Shown: positions 10,825 to 18,143 of the stretch, piece by piece
Position numbering within the stretch: position 1 is the first letter of the stretch
How the letters are laid out: each line of letters starts with the position of its first letter
Notes under the pieces: model-generated
What the model was told of the DNA's origin: nothing
Database searches by the model: none
The model's input: only the letters and a program-made list of their open reading frames with translations
Position numbers and translations under genes: made by a program
From: Candidatus Abzuiibacterium crystallinum
GTDB lineage: Bacteria; Omnitrophota; Omnitrophia; Omnitrophales; Abzuiibacteriaceae
Direction: 5' to 3'
Length of the DNA stretch: 64,000 nucleotides
NCBI GenBank assembly: GCA_002787155.1
Contig: PCVY01000016.1
Location: forward strand, 71,884-135,883

Positions 10825-12540
10825 ATGAATCCCTTGCCCGCTCGAAGAAAAATAAGAAAAAAAAATTTGTTAGGCTATGTGTTGTTCATTGTCTTTTTGC
10901 TGTGGAACGCCGGGGCGTTTGCTGATCAAAACGACGGTGTGCCAACTGATAATTCAAATAGTTCAGACGCCCAAAACTTTGACGAAGCAGCCGATGAGGC
11001 AGTTGGTCAATTAAACCAAGACGCACCGACTGCCCTGGAAGAAAACCAACCTGAGGAGTTGGAAATGGCCGGCGATGAGGATGTGAGCACTGCTTCTATG
11101 GTGATGCCCGTTGAGGAGATGGAAGAAGAAATAAGCAGTGATGAAGAAGCCGTTCAGCTCGCCAGCCAGGACACGACTGCCCCGGGGAATGTGAGTCTTG
11201 ATTTTAAAGATGCTGACATCTTGAATGTTCTACGGGTGCTTAGCTTAAAAAGCAACGTGAATATTGTGGCCGGTCCTGAAGTAGAGGGGACAGTTACCAT
11301 TCGTTTGTCAGACGTTCCGTGGGAAAAAGCCATGGATGTTGTTTTGCGTACTTACGGATATGTTTACGAGCGGGAAGGAAATATCATTCGTGTCACGACC
11401 AAAGATAATTTATCAACAGAGGAATTAGTCACTGAAACTTACGTGTTGAATTACACCACATCACAAGAAGTCGAAGAGGCAATTCGCGATGTCTTATCAG
11501 AGCGCGGACGCGTCAAATCGGTACCGCGTGCAAATACCATTATCGTTTCTGATGTGCCCACCAACATGTATAAGATCAGTCAGGTAATAGCCGCGCTTGA
11601 TCAAATTACCCCGCAAGTCTATATCGATGCAAAGATTGTGCGAACCGAGTTAAATGAGAACGAAGATCTTGGCATCGGTTGGAATCTTCAAGGATCAATA
11701 ACGGGCGGATCGCGCGAGGTTACTTTTCCGTTTACTGCACCGGGCAACACAACGGATTTTAACCCCATCAATAATCTATTTAACGATTTTTTCGCAGGCA
11801 AGGCCCCCTTTAGTAACCTTGACAATGAAGCAGTCAATGTCACTGACTCAACGGCGACTGAGGCCGGATTTACCTTAGGAACGCTTAATTTTCAATCTCT
11901 GAGTGCGGCGTTGGCTTATCTGCGGTCGAAAACAAATACCAAGATTGTTTCGAATCCGCGCATTGTTGTTTTAAACAATCAAACAGCAAAAGTGCAAGTG
12001 GGCAATGAAATACCAATACCCACATTTGAACGAAATGAAACAACCGGCAGTTTTGTTATTTCCGGATTTACCTACCGTGATACCGGCGTTGTTTTGAATG
12101 TTACTCCCCACATTAATGCCGCACGTGAAATCTTGGTTGATTTAAAACCCGAAGTAAGCAGTCAGGCAGCAGATGTAAGTTTTGGAACAGGTGTTTTTCA
12201 AGCACCTTCGTTTAGCACAACGACCGCTGAAACTCAATTGCTCATCAAAGATGGTGAAACAATTGCAATCGGAGGTCTCATGCGTGATCTGGAAAAATAC
12301 GAGGAGGATTCGGTCCCCGGTTTGTCAAAGATTCCGTTAATTGGCCGCTTATTCAGGAACTCAACAAAGCCAGCGGGATCGGATGCAAATCAAAAGATCG
12401 AGACATTATTTTTCATCACCATTTCTATCGTAGATACAGCTGGACAGCGTACAATGGTGCAGCCAATGCGTCGGAATACCACCATTGTACCTGCGCAAAC
12501 AGCCGTAAATACAGTTGGAATTCAACAAAACCCAGTTTAA
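10825..12540 (+). CDS. pilQ: Type IV pilus secretin PilQ
   Basis: Signal peptide. Acidic low-complexity N-terminal region. C-terminal secretin domain (GETIAIGGL...VPGLSKIPLIGRLF). Confidence 0.85.
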   Translation: MNPLPARRKIRKKNLLGYVLFIVFLLWNAGAFADQNDGVPTDNSNSSDAQNFDEAADEAVGQLNQDAPTALEENQPEELEMAGDEDVSTASMVMPVEEMEEEISSDEEAVQLASQDTTAPGNVSLDFKDADILNVLRVLSLKSNVNIVAGPEVEGTVTIRLSDVPWEKAMDVVLRTYGYVYEREGNIIRVTTKDNLSTEELVTETYVLNYTTSQEVEEAIRDVLSERGRVKSVPRANTIIVSDVPTNMYKISQVIAALDQITPQVYIDAKIVRTELNENEDLGIGWNLQGSITGGSREVTFPFTAPGNTTDFNPINNLFNDFFAGKAPFSNLDNEAVNVTDSTATEAGFTLGTLNFQSLSAALAYLRSKTNTKIVSNPRIVVLNNQTAKVQVGNEIPIPTFERNETTGSFVISGFTYRDTGVVLNVTPHINAAREILVDLKPEVSSQAADVSFGTGVFQAPSFSTTTAETQLLIKDGETIAIGGLMRDLEKYEEDSVPGLSKIPLIGRLFRNSTKPAGSDANQKIETLFFITISIVDTAGQRTMVQPMRRNTTIVPAQTAVNTVGIQQNPV

Positions 12541-12714
12541 CAATTTCATTGTGGCTGAAAGTGAGTTTGAGCAAATTTATGGAAGACAATGTGATGTATA
12601 GTCAGCATGTTAACACTAAAGATCTTTGCCTATCGATTGGGCAAAGGATCGTTGTCTTGCTGCTCAGTTTTAAACAGCCCAATTCACAACTATTACAAAG
12701 AATGGTTAATTTAT

Positions 12715-14265
12715 ATGAAGAAAGAAATACTCATGTCGCTGGAAGCCAACGAAAAAAGAGTGGCGATCCTCGAAAATGGCAAATTAGAAGAATATTACAT
12801 CGAACGCGAAGAAACACAGCGCATGTTTGGCAATATCTACAAAGGTACTGTCAAATCAGTTGTCCCGGGTATCGGGGCAGCCTTTATTGATCTTGGACTC
12901 AAAAAAGACGGATTCTTATATGTTTCAGACGCCATCGGTTCTCCGTTAGAGACTGCGTTTGAAGAGTTTGATACAGAAGACGACGAAGAGGAAGAAAAGC
13001 AAGGGTCCAGAAAGAAGCCGCACCGCAAAAATCACCGCGACCACAGAAAAGACCTGCCTCGCATAGATTCTGTTCTAAGTGTCGGACAAGAAATCATTGT
13101 ACAGGTTGTCAAAGAGCCTATCCGCAACAAGGGGGCTAGGCTCACCACCCATTTTTCTATTCCAGCCCGTTACCTCGTTTTGATGCCGGGGGAGCGAAAA
13201 ATCGGTATTTCAAGACGTGTCGATGACCGAAAAGAAAGAGAACGAATCCGTAAAATTTTTGCTGAAATTGACATCCCCTCAGACGTTGGTTTTATTGTCA
13301 GGACAGCGGGGGAGGGTAAGAGTAAACGGGAGTTTATCCGCGATGTCAAATACCTCATCAAAACGTGGAATCGGATCAAAAATGACATTCAACGCAAGAA
13401 GGGTCCTTGCCAGATTCATGAAGAGTTGGATTTGGTTGAACGAATGATCCGCGACTATTTTACAGAGGACATGGATAAAATTGTTGTTGATCATTACAAC
13501 CTTTACACGCAAGTCAGACGGTTTTTCAAGTCCTACATGCCCGGCTATCGGGCGCATGTGGAATGGCATCGCGGTCCTGAACCTTTGTTTGAAAAATACC
13601 TGATTGAAAAAGAAATTGCCAAAACCTTCCAACGCAATGTCATGCTGAAATCACGCGGCCATATCGTCATTGAACAAACGGAGAGTTTGGTGGCCATTGA
13701 TATTAATACAGGGAAATTTACCGGCAAACGAGATTTGGAGGAGACTGTCTATCGCACCAATATCGAAGCAGCCCATGAGATTGCCAGGCAAATAAGGCTG
13801 AGGGATATGGGCGGCATTATCATCATCGATTTTATCGATATGGAACGTGAAGATCATCGCCGAAGTGTGTATCGAATTTTTCGGGATGCCATCCAGAAAA
13901 AAGATCGTGCCAAGACCAATATCCTTTCGATGTCAGATATTGGATTGGTAGAAATGACTCGGCAGCGTCTGAGGCCGTCACTTGAAAGCGCTTTGTATGA
14001 TTCCTGCCCTTACTGCCGCGGGAAAGGAATGGTCAAATCAGCCAACACCATGTCGATACAAAGCGTCAAGGAAATCAGGAAGTCGCTCAATTCGTCCAAA
14101 GGGAAAGTGTTAAACGTTTACGTGCATCCAGATGTGGCCGATCGATTGCTGCATCAAGAGCAGAAATCAATACAGGAATTAGAGCGAATGTCCAAGAGCC
14201 GAATTCTGGTCTTAGCAGATCCTGCGCTGCACATTGAAGATGTTAATATCACATTTATTCATTAA
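12715..14265 (+). CDS. rng: Ribonuclease G/E family (RNase G-like), S1 domain plus catalytic domain
   Basis: N-terminus MKKEILMSLEANEKRVAILENGKLEEYYIERE, S1 domain NIYKGTVKSVVPGIGAAFIDLG, and DNase I-like catalytic core. I chose ATG 12715 over the ORF-track start at 12607, which would add a non-conserved leader. The sequence contains a charged insertion (DTEDDEEEEKQGSRKKPHRKNHRDHRKD). Confidence 0.8.
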   Translation: MKKEILMSLEANEKRVAILENGKLEEYYIEREETQRMFGNIYKGTVKSVVPGIGAAFIDLGLKKDGFLYVSDAIGSPLETAFEEFDTEDDEEEEKQGSRKKPHRKNHRDHRKDLPRIDSVLSVGQEIIVQVVKEPIRNKGARLTTHFSIPARYLVLMPGERKIGISRRVDDRKERERIRKIFAEIDIPSDVGFIVRTAGEGKSKREFIRDVKYLIKTWNRIKNDIQRKKGPCQIHEELDLVERMIRDYFTEDMDKIVVDHYNLYTQVRRFFKSYMPGYRAHVEWHRGPEPLFEKYLIEKEIAKTFQRNVMLKSRGHIVIEQTESLVAIDINTGKFTGKRDLEETVYRTNIEAAHEIARQIRLRDMGGIIIIDFIDMEREDHRRSVYRIFRDAIQKKDRAKTNILSMSDIGLVEMTRQRLRPSLESALYDSCPYCRGKGMVKSANTMSIQSVKEIRKSLNSSKGKVLNVYVHPDVADRLLHQEQKSIQELERMSKSRILVLADPALHIEDVNITFIH

Positions 14266-14284: not shown

Positions 14285-14563
14285 ATGCGACGCAATCCAA
14301 CAGCGCTTATCATGGTAATCATGCTCATGCTGATTCTCGCCGCAATACCGCTTTTTGCTGAAAATGATTCATCGGAACGATCAAGAAAAGACGGCATCTC
14401 TGAATATGGTACGTTTGCGGTTGTGCAGAAGCCGATTGAAGGCGTTGGTCAGGCGATAGACTGGACCGTAAAAGGGATTGGAAAAGCTGGTTCATATGTA
14501 TTCACGCTGCCTTTTCGTCCTTTTATGAAAGAAAAAAATCAAACAGGAGAGACCCATGGCTAA
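14285..14563 (+). CDS. Small hypothetical exported/membrane protein
   Basis: 92 aa. N-terminal hydrophobic signal/anchor MRRNPTALIMVIMLMLILAAIPLFA. Strong RBS GGGAGGGG. Confidence 0.4.
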   Translation: MRRNPTALIMVIMLMLILAAIPLFAENDSSERSRKDGISEYGTFAVVQKPIEGVGQAIDWTVKGIGKAGSYVFTLPFRPFMKEKNQTGETHG

Positions 14564-14993
14564 GAAAAGAAAAACTCAAAAGAAAAAAACGAGTCAGGGT
14601 AAGAAAAAGAGAGCTAAGCCAACCAAGCGTAAAAAAACATCTAAGCAGCAAGCCAGATCAAACCTGAAACCCAAAAAAGGATTACTTAAGACGTTTGTCG
14701 GTAAATTATTGGGGAAGGGCAAAAAAGGAGATTTAGCGGCAAAAGGAAAATTGATAGGCGCGATCACGCATTATTTTCCACACGTACATGCCGGGGTTCT
14801 GATCCTTCGTTCAGGACAACTCAAGCGGGGTGACCGTATTTACATCAAGGGTCACACAACCGATTTTAAGCAAATTGTTGATTCACTTCAAATAGATCGT
14901 GTCAATATCGAGACCGCTAAGAAAGGTGATGAGATCGGCATCGCTGTTAAAAAAAGAGTGCGCGTCGGCGACGAAGTTTATTTGATTGGCTAG
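14556..14993 (+). CDS. Lysine-rich, histone H1-like small protein with a C-terminal beta-barrel (EF-Tu domain-2-like) domain
   Basis: About 60 N-terminal residues are extremely K/R-rich (MAKKRKTQKKKTSQGKKKRAKPTKRKKTSKQQ...). The C-terminus has a GxV...LKRGDRIYIKG...GDEIGIAVKK...VGDEVYL pattern. Confidence 0.5.
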   Translation: MAKKRKTQKKKTSQGKKKRAKPTKRKKTSKQQARSNLKPKKGLLKTFVGKLLGKGKKGDLAAKGKLIGAITHYFPHVHAGVLILRSGQLKRGDRIYIKGHTTDFKQIVDSLQIDRVNIETAKKGDEIGIAVKKRVRVGDEVYLIG

Positions 14994-15005
14994 TTTTGAG
15001 GATGT

Positions 15006-15323
15006 ATGGCACAACTTTTTGTCCGGGTCTGGAAAAATTTCGAAATCGAAGAAGTTAAAAAGCATCTCTTGTTCATGGGTGATTCGAGCGGTGATTGTGC
15101 TAATTGCCGAGCATTTGGGTTAGATCCCTGGTCCGCGAAAAGTTGTCCCGAATGTAAAACGACCTTTCAATTCTTTACCAGCCGTCGATTCCAAACCCAT
15201 CCGGGTGAACGTTTCTCCTTCGCCAAACGGGCGCATGATAAAAGACCTGAATTAATCTGCATTGATTACGAAGATTATATGAAAGCCATTGGCGATAAAA
15301 AGGCGCGTGATTTTTTTTCATGA
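15006..15323 (+). CDS. Small hypothetical zinc-ribbon protein
   Basis: 105 aa with CxxC...CxxC (CANCRAF...CPECK). Confidence 0.35.
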   Translation: MAQLFVRVWKNFEIEEVKKHLLFMGDSSGDCANCRAFGLDPWSAKSCPECKTTFQFFTSRRFQTHPGERFSFAKRAHDKRPELICIDYEDYMKAIGDKKARDFFS

Positions 15324-16534
15324 GTATCGATCTTGGCAATACACGGGAAAACTTCAAATCCCTCCAACCTGATATTGTCCATCTGACCTCGGTCGTATAT
15401 TTTTTTCAAGGATGCCTTGGCATTGTCGGTATTGCACTTCCATTATTTTTGCGAAATATGGGCTTTAGCGTTTCTAAAATTGCTTATTTTACCTCTATCA
15501 TGACAGTGCCCTGGCTTTTTAAGATTATTTACGGAAGCATATCGGATGCATATCCAATTAGAGGGAAAAGGAGAAAACCTTATTTATTGTTTTATGCCGT
15601 GGCAGCCAGTTTGGGATGGTTGTTATTATCCTGCGTTCCTGCAAAATGGTGGTGGCTCTTATTGGCTGCTTTGATTGCGCAATTGGGTTTTGCGGGAACC
15701 GATGTTGTTACCGATGGCATCGTTGTTGAGCATTCTGATGAGAAAACAACTCAGATATATCAGAGTATTGCATGGGGGGCGAGAAGTGTTGGCGCTTTAC
15801 TTACAGGGGTGATGGGCGGTTATCTGGCAGCGCACTTGCCTTATCGTGTTATTTTTGCCGTGATGGGCTGTTTGCCTTTGATCATATTAATAGCAGTCCT
15901 AAACTATCAAGAAAATGTGTGCAAAGATTTAGCAAGACGTGACGGGTTTCTATCCTCACTCGTCAAAAGTTTTAAATTACTGTTTACGATACGTGACTTA
16001 GGGTTGTTCTGCATCATTCTATTTATTTCAACTTTATCCGGGATGTTTGTTGTGCCTTTATTTTTTTATCTCAAGGAAACCTTGGGGTTTAGCGAGTTGT
16101 TTTTAGGTTCTCTATCGAGTATCACCTGGGGCGGTGCTATCGTCGGCTGTTTTCTTTACTTAAAGTTTTTAAATCACTTGCCGCTTAAAAAAGCACTTTA
16201 TCTTGCGTTTGGGATTGGCGTCGTGAGCATTATTTCTTGTTTGGCGATTCGCAGTCAACTCTCATCGATCATGATCTATTTCATGGGAGGTGTTCTTGGG
16301 TATATCGGCATATTACCGCTCATGTCAACCGCAGCCAAGCTTTCTCACAAGACCGGCGTTGAGGGATCGCTGTTTGCTATACTGATGAGCGTTCACAACA
16401 TTGGCGTTTCTTCATCAGGTATTTTAGGGGGATGGCTGTTTAAATGGGTTTCTATCGAACAGTTGATTTTAATGAGTGCTGCCATGACCTGCGCGGGATT
16501 TTTTGTTATTGCGCGATTAAAAACAGTTCAATAA
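15320..16534 (+). CDS. MFS transporter of the folate-biopterin transporter (BT1) family
   Basis: About 12 transmembrane helices. BT1 signature after TM2: FKIIYGSISDAYPIRGKRRKPYLLF. Confidence 0.55.
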   Translation: MSIDLGNTRENFKSLQPDIVHLTSVVYFFQGCLGIVGIALPLFLRNMGFSVSKIAYFTSIMTVPWLFKIIYGSISDAYPIRGKRRKPYLLFYAVAASLGWLLLSCVPAKWWWLLLAALIAQLGFAGTDVVTDGIVVEHSDEKTTQIYQSIAWGARSVGALLTGVMGGYLAAHLPYRVIFAVMGCLPLIILIAVLNYQENVCKDLARRDGFLSSLVKSFKLLFTIRDLGLFCIILFISTLSGMFVVPLFFYLKETLGFSELFLGSLSSITWGGAIVGCFLYLKFLNHLPLKKALYLAFGIGVVSIISCLAIRSQLSSIMIYFMGGVLGYIGILPLMSTAAKLSHKTGVEGSLFAILMSVHNIGVSSSGILGGWLFKWVSIEQLILMSAAMTCAGFFVIARLKTVQ

Positions 16535-16820: not shown

Positions 16821-18143
16821 ATGGAAAATCTCAAAGCTGATGCTATTCAAATTGTGACGGACTTACAAAAAGCGGGCCATATTGCTTACTTTGCCGGCGG
16901 CTGTGTCCGCGACAAATTAATGGGTCTGACGCCCACCGATTATGATATCGCTACAACTGCAAAGCCTGAGGAAGTCGAGCGGTTATTTAAAAAAACAGTT
17001 TCGGTTGGCAAGCAGTTTGGCGTCACGATTGTTGTGCGTAATCAACATCATTTTGAAGTGGCAACCTTTCGCGAGGAAGGTGATTACCAAGACGGCAGGC
17101 ATCCCGGCCGCGTTTCATTCAGCCGTCCTGAAAAAGATGCGCTAAGAAGGGATTTTACGATCAACGGAATGTTTTTTGACCCCATTCAGGATAAAGTGAT
17201 CGATTATGTTGATGGTCAATTGGATATACAAAAAAAAGTTATTCGTACCATTGGCAATCCCCGAGACCGATTCAAAGAAGATAAACTACGCTTATTAAGA
17301 GCAGCCCGCTTTGCGGTTAATTTAGGGTTTTCGATTACACCGGAAACTAAAAAAGCCATTCAGGAGATGGCGAGTGATATTGGGTGTGTGAGTCAAGAGA
17401 GGATCCGCGATGAATTGATTAAGTTATTCACCCGGCCTCGGGCAGGGGACGGGCTTTATCTCTTATCCGAGTTAGGTCTTTTGAAGGTTATTTTACCTGA
17501 AATTGAAGCCATGAAGGGTGTTCAACAATCGCCCGAGTTTCACCCCGAAGGAGATGTTTTTGTTCATACGGCCATTATTCTCAATCAATTAAAAGATCCT
17601 TCTCCTATTTTAGCGTTTGGCGCGCTTTTGCATGATGTCGGCAAACCGGCGACACAGGCCGTGAAGGAGGGGAAAATCACTTTTTATTCCCATGAGCACG
17701 TGGGCGCTGAGATGGCAGAGAAGATTTTGCGTCGATTAAGGTTCTCAAATCATGAAATTGACGGTATTCTATCTTGCGTGGTGAATCACATGAAGTTTGC
17801 AGCGGTTCAGCAAATGCGGCTCGGAAAGCTTAAACAATTTGTAACACGCGAAGGGTTTGATGATGAACTTGAGTTCCATCGCATCGATTGCCTTTCCAGC
17901 CATGGGAAATTGGATAATTATCAGTTTTTAAAATTAAAGTTAAAAGAATTTGAAATTGAGAACCTTAAACCAAAAAGCTTGATTAATGGGCACGATTTGA
18001 AGAAAATAGGCATTGTGTCGGGCCCTTTGATGAAGACTATTTTAGATGAGGTTTATGTTCAACAGTTGGAAGGGAAATGGCAAAATAAAGAAGAGGTATT
18101 AGAATGGGTGCAGCGCACTTATCAGAAAAAGAGCCAAGGCTAG
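16821..18143 (+). CDS. cca: CCA tRNA nucleotidyltransferase / poly(A) polymerase family with HD domain
   Basis: GGCVRDKLMG...DYDIATTA head-domain motif. RxxRF motif. HD domain (HDVGK). Confidence 0.75.
   Translation: MENLKADAIQIVTDLQKAGHIAYFAGGCVRDKLMGLTPTDYDIATTAKPEEVERLFKKTVSVGKQFGVTIVVRNQHHFEVATFREEGDYQDGRHPGRVSFSRPEKDALRRDFTINGMFFDPIQDKVIDYVDGQLDIQKKVIRTIGNPRDRFKEDKLRLLRAARFAVNLGFSITPETKKAIQEMASDIGCVSQERIRDELIKLFTRPRAGDGLYLLSELGLLKVILPEIEAMKGVQQSPEFHPEGDVFVHTAIILNQLKDPSPILAFGALLHDVGKPATQAVKEGKITFYSHEHVGAEMAEKILRRLRFSNHEIDGILSCVVNHMKFAAVQQMRLGKLKQFVTREGFDDELEFHRIDCLSSHGKLDNYQFLKLKLKEFEIENLKPKSLINGHDLKKIGIVSGPLMKTILDEVYVQQLEGKWQNKEEVLEWVQRTYQKKSQG

Follow-up and report, generated by a model that had tools for sequence, protein, structure and literature searches.

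What would a bacterium do with a histone-H1-like polybasic tail fused to a barrel of the kind found in translation factors? The question is raised by a gene for a 145-aa protein in the 64-kb stretch of DNA analysed here (the window), which comes from an Omnitrophota metagenome-assembled genome (MAG) of Candidatus Abzuiibacterium crystallinum, sample CG11_big_fil. We compared the gene and its surroundings with 80 related loci from species-representative genomes. Judging by homology and by analogy with an archaeal protein, we tentatively favor, at somewhat less than an even chance, a small, strongly basic RNA-binding protein in which barrel and tail cooperate. An initial annotation of this DNA had placed three plus-strand open reading frames (ORFs) here, and all three are present with exactly the coordinates and overlaps it gave. 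The barrel-gene start and the stop of the first ORF share 8 nt (ATGGCTAA), and the third ORF starts 12 nt past the barrel-gene stop. The features needed for what follows are these:

14285..14563, + strand: 92-aa ORF with a hydrophobic N-terminal segment, from the ORF list, overlapping the start of the barrel gene by 8 nt
14556..14993, + strand: lysine-tailed barrel gene, 145 aa, with an ATG start and AGGAG 4 nt upstream
14556..14750, + strand: disordered polybasic tail, residues 1–65, delimited by composition, low pLDDT and an open frame in relatives
14751..14993, + strand: beta-barrel domain, residues 66–145, with motifs ITHYFP, KGHTTDF, SLQ, GDEIG and RVRxGD; the NCBI start is the TTG at 14751
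15006..15323, + strand: 105-aa four-cysteine zinc-ribbon-like protein, with a 4-nt overlap (ATGA) with the BT1 transporter gene

The protein had been described as beginning with about 60 residues of near-pure K/R/T/S. This holds for residues 1–41, which are rich in K, R, T, S and Q, and fails for residues 42–65, a K/G/L-rich linker (GLLKTFVGKLLGKGKKGDLAAKGKL). Of the 67 residues that precede the barrel, 28 are K/R and one is D/E; isoelectric points (pI) were computed as 12.0 (tail), 9.6 (barrel) and 10.8 (whole 145-aa protein). At 21 K/R per 40 residues the tail has the highest K/R density among all ORFs of the window, and its residues 1–60 reach a pLDDT of only 57–63 in an AlphaFold model of the 145-aa protein built from a 30-sequence alignment. 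A search of related genomes recovered the fusion of a lysine-rich tail to this barrel in 110 of the 120 closest homologues, with at least 30 residues ahead of the barrel in each. These tails cannot be aligned with one another. Over the 120 closest homologues they have a median length of 58 aa, with 44% K+R and 3% D+E (K 37%, A 13%, V 8%, R 6%, S 6%, P 5%), and hundreds of homologues, otherwise unrelated in tail sequence, preserve the lysine-rich composition. Because the tail is the window-wide K/R maximum and its composition is kept across homologues, we consider it more than a chance feature. A candidate amphipathic helix within the window tail, the internal cluster GLLKTFVGKLLG, was marginal (p = 0.056) with a low helical moment, and we did not use it as evidence.

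Public annotations differ on whether the tail belongs to the protein at all. The NCBI product (PIQ87310.1), named “translation elongation factor-like protein,” consists of the last 80 aa, read from the TTG at 14751, and the JGI, Logan and ENA gene calls give the 145-aa product. Shine-Dalgarno-like sequences leave the choice undecided because both candidate starts have one, that of the TTG being an AGGA just upstream. At least 45 codons upstream of the barrel are open in the same frame in approximately 70 of 76 species-representative genomes; this stretch has a K+R fraction of 0.31–0.56 and mostly opens with ATG as M[AVP]xKKK. The other two frames hold 1–8 stops over the same 150 nt of the related loci, and relatives differ in tail length by in-frame insertions and deletions. 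From this open lysine-rich frame, the stops elsewhere and the in-frame length changes across relatives, we conclude on comparative sequence evidence that the true product is the 145-aa form and that the tail is translated. It is very improbable that the product is instead the 80-aa barrel from TTG 14751, with the lysine-rich region an untranslated A-rich leader. The 80-aa NCBI record, the AGGA and the existence of tail-less 81–93 aa relatives in Patescibacteria would fit such an artefact, but the open upstream frame, the in-frame tail indels, the 145-aa calls of the other gene callers and a second instance of the same NCBI truncation argue against it. In that second genome, the NCBI call covers 92 aa of a 145-aa open frame (L001:5851-6288) and cuts off a 68-aa tail. 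The truncation of family tails by NCBI is probably systematic.

Behind the tail, residues 61–145 are modeled as all-beta, with seven strands and a pLDDT of 93–98, in a closed beta-barrel that can be superposed on domain II of EF-Tu or IF2 and that is thus a member of the translation-protein superfamily. The initial annotation had likened this domain to EF-Tu domain 2; the confident all-beta model agrees, as does a match to the Pfam model GTP_EFTU_D2 (E = 2e-5, 25.4 bits, short of the gathering score of 30.3 bits). The same model matches 29 of 30 family members at E <= 1, with a best value of 2.1e-8, and a barrel-only family profile searched against the PDB found archaeal EF1A (4e-5) and EF-Tu (5e-4 to 4e-3). 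By sequence, the barrel is a distant homologue of GTP_EFTU_D2 and not a curated member. With domain II of the translational GTPases (EF-Tu, EF1A, SelB, IF2/eIF5B) it has the fold and a detectable sequence homology in common, whereas the window protein is without a GTPase domain and without domain III, its barrel is more compact, and its ITHYFP strand motif has no HMMER-aligned counterpart in GTPase domain II. For the 145-aa protein, all Pfam and NCBIfam models score below their curated cut-offs. A P-loop GTPase domain is not among its Pfam/NCBIfam matches, residues 1–65 being disordered tail; nor is any ribosomal-protein family, and ribosomal-protein families are likewise missing from the annotated recurrent neighbor clusters in the 80 loci. 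What we find is not a ribosomal-protein-like paralogue; it is a stand-alone family of its own within the translation-factor barrel superfamily, and the proposed architecture, an EF-Tu-domain-2-like barrel joined to a polybasic tail of H1 type, is borne out.

If the barrel recognises a ligand, its conserved residues suggest where. In the HMMER alignment, the near-invariant Q112 is paired with E. coli E259, the Glu of the EF-Tu GxEMF motif, and the near-invariant E126 with E. coli N273, the Asn of GDNxG. Work by Nissen et al. in 1995 is said to have given N273 a role in the aminoacyl pocket of EF-Tu. E259 has been named as a contact of EF-Tu with the tRNA end (PMC9540759). The HMMER alignment stops short of the ITHYF strand, and by strand order we infer that it corresponds to the xEDVF strand of EF-Tu. 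In tail-less relatives from Patescibacteria, T71, H72, T102, F104, Q106, Q112, E126, G128 and R136 are kept at 94–100%, and for T71, H72, Q112, E126, G128 and R136 the figure is 97% or more.

The structure comparison of the barrel domain, which had been put forward as a check on the initial annotation, returned tRNA- and ribosome-binding modules as its relatives, with the C-terminal domain of U32 proteins (Peptidase_U32_C; PDB 4HE5/4HE6) as the best match at 15–16% identity. The likeness is by structure only and is confined to the accessory C-terminal barrel. Only 3 of 30 family members touch the Peptidase_U32_C model, at E >= 0.02; there is no match to the catalytic Peptidase_U32 domain, and the window protein has no cysteine. 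Many family members nonetheless carry the JGI label “putative protease” or “U32 family peptidase.” Among U32 enzymes, TrhP is responsible for ho5U34 in tRNA and RlhA for ho5C2501 in 23S rRNA. TrhP and B. subtilis YrrO have a characteristic C-terminal motif in common, which we tentatively take to be the U32 C-terminal barrel, and a literature search found no stated function for the U32 C-terminal domain.

A free barrel of this type with a disordered tail is already known from archaea. In Thermococcales, Pbp11 combines a free-standing EF-Tu-domain-II-like barrel with a disordered N-terminal tail; in gel shifts, total tRNA was shifted only when this tail was present, and short single-stranded DNA or RNA, double-stranded DNA and hybrids were left unshifted (PMC9540759). 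Its pull-downs also contain ribosomal proteins and enzymes of tRNA processing (PMC9540759). Like the window protein, Pbp11 (Q9UZY3, PDB 7ANU; PF0907, PDB 1XE1/4PGO) is a lone barrel of ~10 kDa behind a disordered tail. It is, however, not a sequence orthologue, with the family profile matching 7anu_A at E = 0.1 over 30 residues only. It is archaeal and binds the PAN proteasome, which is absent from bacteria, and its tail is short and is not called lysine-rich in the paper, whereas that of the window protein is long and lysine-rich.

Because the relatives of the barrel are tRNA- and ribosome-binding modules, and because Pbp11 shifts tRNA and not DNA, the homology evidence leans to RNA over the nucleoid. 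Every characterised setting of the barrel that we found is tied to tRNA or the ribosome. In an RNA-binding protein of this design, the pocket formed by T71, H72, Q112, E126 and R136 would occupy the position that in EF-Tu grips the aminoacyl-tRNA 3' end and would recognise a specific, conserved RNA feature, most likely the acceptor end of a tRNA or a site on the ribosome. The polycationic tail would supply strong, sequence-independent affinity for the RNA backbone, in parallel with the flexible N-terminal tail that Pbp11 needs for tRNA binding, and the basic barrel surface of the Omnitrophota members may add non-specific backbone affinity as well. It is in this sense that we infer RNA as the ligand, with a division of labor between tail and barrel.

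Several observations weigh against RNA as the ligand. In its composition (K 37%, A 13%, with P, S and T), the tail is equally typical of DNA-compacting tails of the H1/Hc1 type. The similarity to GTP_EFTU_D2 scores under the gathering threshold and is confined to the last two thirds of the barrel; the counterpart of E259 is Gln and not Glu; and that of EF-Tu R288 is unassignable, as loop lengths differ and no HMMER alignment extends there. In some relatives, described below, the barrel sits behind TIR domains, where it could sense a target other than RNA. Finally, gene neighborhoods are heterogeneous and rarely translation-related, and the commonest neighbors are genes for a ParA-like ATPase, an endonuclease III-like protein and RmuC.

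The composition of the tail in particular raises the possibility of an H1/Hc1-like nucleoid protein, in which the tail would condense DNA in very small cells and the barrel would dimerise or bind a partner. The histone H1 C-terminal domain, chlamydial Hc1/Hc2 and the mycobacterial HupB tail are K/A/P/S/T-rich polycationic segments, and the window tail is likewise long, disordered and lysine-rich. Family tails, with a median of 58 and up to ~145 aa, match H1-type C-terminal domains in composition and length. Some neighbors are DNA-related: an HhH-GPD glycosylase-like gene lies upstream in 18 of the 80 loci, a ParA/MinD-type ATPase gene occurs in 34 and RmuC is found in the syntenic clade. Unlike in H1, Hc1 and HupB, however, the window tail is N-terminal and sits on a translation-factor barrel, not on a winged-helix or HU fold, and linker-histone and Hc1 families are not among the Pfam/NCBIfam matches at E <= 1. 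Moreover, all relatives of the barrel, whether by structure or by sequence, are linked to RNA or translation, Pbp11 showed no DNA binding (PMC9540759), and a near-invariant pocket, common to non-basic tail-less relatives, would be needless for coating DNA non-specifically. We therefore regard a nucleoid protein as unlikely, though still a serious contender. Less likely again is a phylum-specific, probably abundant polycation whose barrel docks on tRNA or the ribosome and whose H1-like tail serves to condense or tether nucleic acid. If true, the protein would be a factor of this lineage that associates with ribosomes or sequesters tRNA, or one that couples nucleoid and translation machinery physically, in ultra-small cells; we know of no counterpart of such a kind described in cultivated bacteria.

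A scan of GTDB, with one genome per species, found relatives encoded by at least 551 species genomes, and the best 80 genomes are all Omnitrophota MAGs or assemblies coarsely labeled “uncultured Planctomycetia/bacterium.” At E <= 1e-3, 664 of ~1000 candidates scored were homologues, and most of the 120 listed are 120–163 aa long. An exhaustive HMMER search with the barrel alone yielded 2138 clusters (50% identity) at E <= 1e-3 and 701 at E <= 1e-10. The best 150 clusters comprise 138 with a single barrel and 12 with tandem barrels, and their longest tails reach ~145 aa; among the 138 single-barrel clusters, 106 have an N-terminal tail of at least 30 residues with at least 30% K+R, and 23 are short or tail-less. 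The tail-less relatives, of 81–93 aa, occur in Patescibacteria (Microgenomates, Gottesmanbacteria). Those of ~83 aa that NCBI names “translation elongation factor-like protein” belong to the same barrel family, at ~47–55% identity. The median barrel pI is 9.6 in Omnitrophota and 6.8 in tail-less Patescibacteria. On two Patescibacteria-type contigs, the neighbors of the barrel gene are all unannotated. A contig of this type also carries two 82-aa ORFs lying 250 nt apart (L085:3498-3746 and 4001-4249), of which the second is a tail-less barrel and the first may be a tandem paralogue.

Five of the proteins with tandem barrels (P0147, P0151, P0247, P0270 and P0206, all metagenomic) have an N-terminal TIR_2 domain, with E values down to 2.8e-31. 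This domain order suggests that, in TIR-type signaling or defense proteins, the barrel is the recognition module. The same relatives are relevant to a purely speculative alternative, which we hold to be improbable: the barrel would be a sensor of a small ligand (a nucleotide, or something aminoacyl-adenylate-like), the tail would act on another polyanion such as polyphosphate, and RNA would not be the partner. A position C-terminal to TIR_2, as seen for the tandem barrels of several relatives, is typical of sensor modules, and the polar pocket of T71, H72, Q112, E126 and R136 is common to acidic tail-less relatives; fold searches, however, gave no ligand precedent beyond tRNA ends and the ribosome.

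A literature search on the family and on lysine-rich or histone-like proteins of Omnitrophota found no description among the papers searched. Together with the lack of a model over its curated cut-off, this agrees with the earlier suggestion of a protein type not described in model bacteria. What is already known is the free EF-Tu-domain-II-like barrel with a disordered tail, in Pbp11, and databases already hold the barrel under the labels “translation elongation factor-like protein” and “putative protease.” What is new is the fusion to a long H1-like polybasic tail, near-universal in one phylum and hidden by reference annotation.

We then considered the genes around the barrel gene. Every gene from position 97 to ~21700 of the window lies on the same strand, and a promoter and terminator scan around the three ORFs found no site above shuffled expectation. 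The nearby genes are the following:

10825..12540, + strand: secretin gene (type II/III secretion or type IV pilus type), directly upstream of RNase G; syntenic in 4 of the 80 loci
12607..14265, + strand: RNase G gene, upstream context (Pfam RNase_E_G, 2.4e-101); syntenic in 6 of the 80 loci
15320..16534, + strand: BT1/MFS transporter gene (Pfam BT1, 1.2e-37), in translational coupling with the zinc-ribbon gene; present in 8 of the 80 loci
16821..18143, + strand: gene of the CCA-adding enzyme / poly(A) polymerase family (PolyA_pol, 1.7e-37); syntenic in 8 of the 80 loci

The product of the last gene also has PolyA_pol_RNAbd and HD Pfam matches. As a separate observation, RNase G carries an acidic-then-basic low-complexity insert (DTEDDEEEEKQGSRKKPHRKNHRDHRKD) at residues ~120–150, between its Pfam S1 match (75–108) and its catalytic-domain match (184–454).

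The three ORFs had been read as a mini-cluster, and this did not survive comparison across the 80 loci. The 92-aa ORF does begin with a signal-peptide- or membrane-anchor-like segment (MRRNPTALIMVIMLMLILAAIPLFA), as the hydrophobic anchor ascribed to it implied. It is called in all annotation sources as a hypothetical protein, forms a singleton cluster and has no tblastn match at any of the 80 related loci. At its position, syntenic relatives encode RmuC (~360 aa), in some cases together with a PCMT methyltransferase. The 92-aa ORF is a small gene specific to this lineage, or possibly not a gene, and it may be a lineage-specific replacement or a remnant. The 105-aa protein has 11 homologues among 5.8 billion proteins, and the CxxC…CxxC pattern pointed out in it proved well founded: C31, C34, C47 and C50 are invariant in all 11. 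H20 and the motifs PGERF, IDYEDY and ARDFF are kept as well. Its AlphaFold model has a pLDDT of 86.5, yet no PDB fold matched at E < 0.5. In seven syntenic loci the zinc-ribbon gene lies directly upstream of BT1, and in 6 of these 7 it overlaps the BT1 start; in L023 it is ~40 nt upstream of BT1 and 1.4 kb from the barrel gene. Since adjacency to BT1 is kept even where the barrel gene is distant, the zinc-ribbon gene travels with BT1 and not with the barrel. Because it always lies directly upstream of BT1, usually overlapping it, its product may be an accessory or regulatory subunit of the transporter. The barrel gene itself is found in other neighborhoods in approximately 72 of the 80 related genomes (~90%). 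With a first ORF that lacks homologues in syntenic relatives, a third tied to BT1 and a barrel gene mostly elsewhere, we reject the three ORFs as a functional unit.

The order RNase G … barrel, zinc ribbon, BT1, CCA-adding enzyme occurs in only 7–8 of the 80 loci. In this syntenic clade the barrel gene lies between the genes for RNase G and the CCA-adding enzyme, a weak contextual point for RNA. Recurrent contexts across the 80 loci also include GH57/ParA-CBM48, HhH-GPD and DUF134, and none is universal; since contexts are this heterogeneous, we gave neighborhood little weight as a clue to function. In 26–34 of the 80 loci, all Omnitrophota, the barrel gene comes last in a same-strand array that runs GH57, a 190-aa membrane-anchored protein without a Pfam match, a ParA/MinD-type ATPase-CBM48 fusion, a 108-aa membrane protein and the barrel. 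Examples of its members are as follows:

L020:4380-5474: ParA-CBM48 gene
L060:1899-3443: GH57 gene
L027:3764-4336 and L054:5466-5792: other genes of the array

The ATPase of the array has a C-terminal glycogen-binding module (CBM48/AMPK1_CBM). This pairing of a ParA-like ATPase with glycogen binding is unusual, and the protein might serve to position glycogen granules.

This array, and the way some tails begin, would suit an adaptor that works at the membrane periphery or as a ParA/MinD partner, its basic or amphipathic region binding anionic lipids or stimulating the ATPase and its barrel binding cargo. Basic N-terminal peptides are common in ParA partners. In 66 of 221 family tails (~30%; for example L001:5851-5900, P0189, P0196 and P0178), the protein starts with a hydrophobic or amphipathic motif of the type MxxFKKLKxSLFG, which resembles membrane-targeting helices such as the MinD C-terminus, and in 29–34 of the 80 loci the gene directly follows the ParA/MinD-type ATPase-CBM48 fusion and a small membrane protein. 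The motif is, however, missing from 148 of the 221 tails and from the N-terminus of the window protein, whose internal cluster is marginal, as given above. A search of the window found no ParA-like gene and no ParA-CBM48 homologue, and tails of 50–140 residues go far beyond what contact with lipid or ParA would need. An adaptor of this kind therefore seems to us a poor prospect, and we return to RNA binding as the reading we prefer.

For the family as a whole, the barrel-only search gave 701 clusters (50% identity, E <= 1e-10) and the GTDB scan at least 551 species genomes with a relative, and there is no curated model. In at least two genomes the reference annotation omits the lysine-rich tail, and database users therefore meet only an “elongation factor-like” or hypothetical protein of 80–92 aa. 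The tail-less forms of Patescibacteria and the TIR-fused tandem forms suggest that the barrel is a portable recognition module. If binding to tRNA or the ribosome holds, the protein would be the bacterial counterpart of archaeal Pbp11 and an example of how a domain of translation factors is put to use as a free-standing RNA binder; should DNA be the ligand, bacteria would have a new kind of H1-like chromatin protein. We regard it as a solid, experimentally tractable lead and not as a surprise of principle: a compact, easily expressed protein that offers an entry into the cell biology of an uncultivated phylum.

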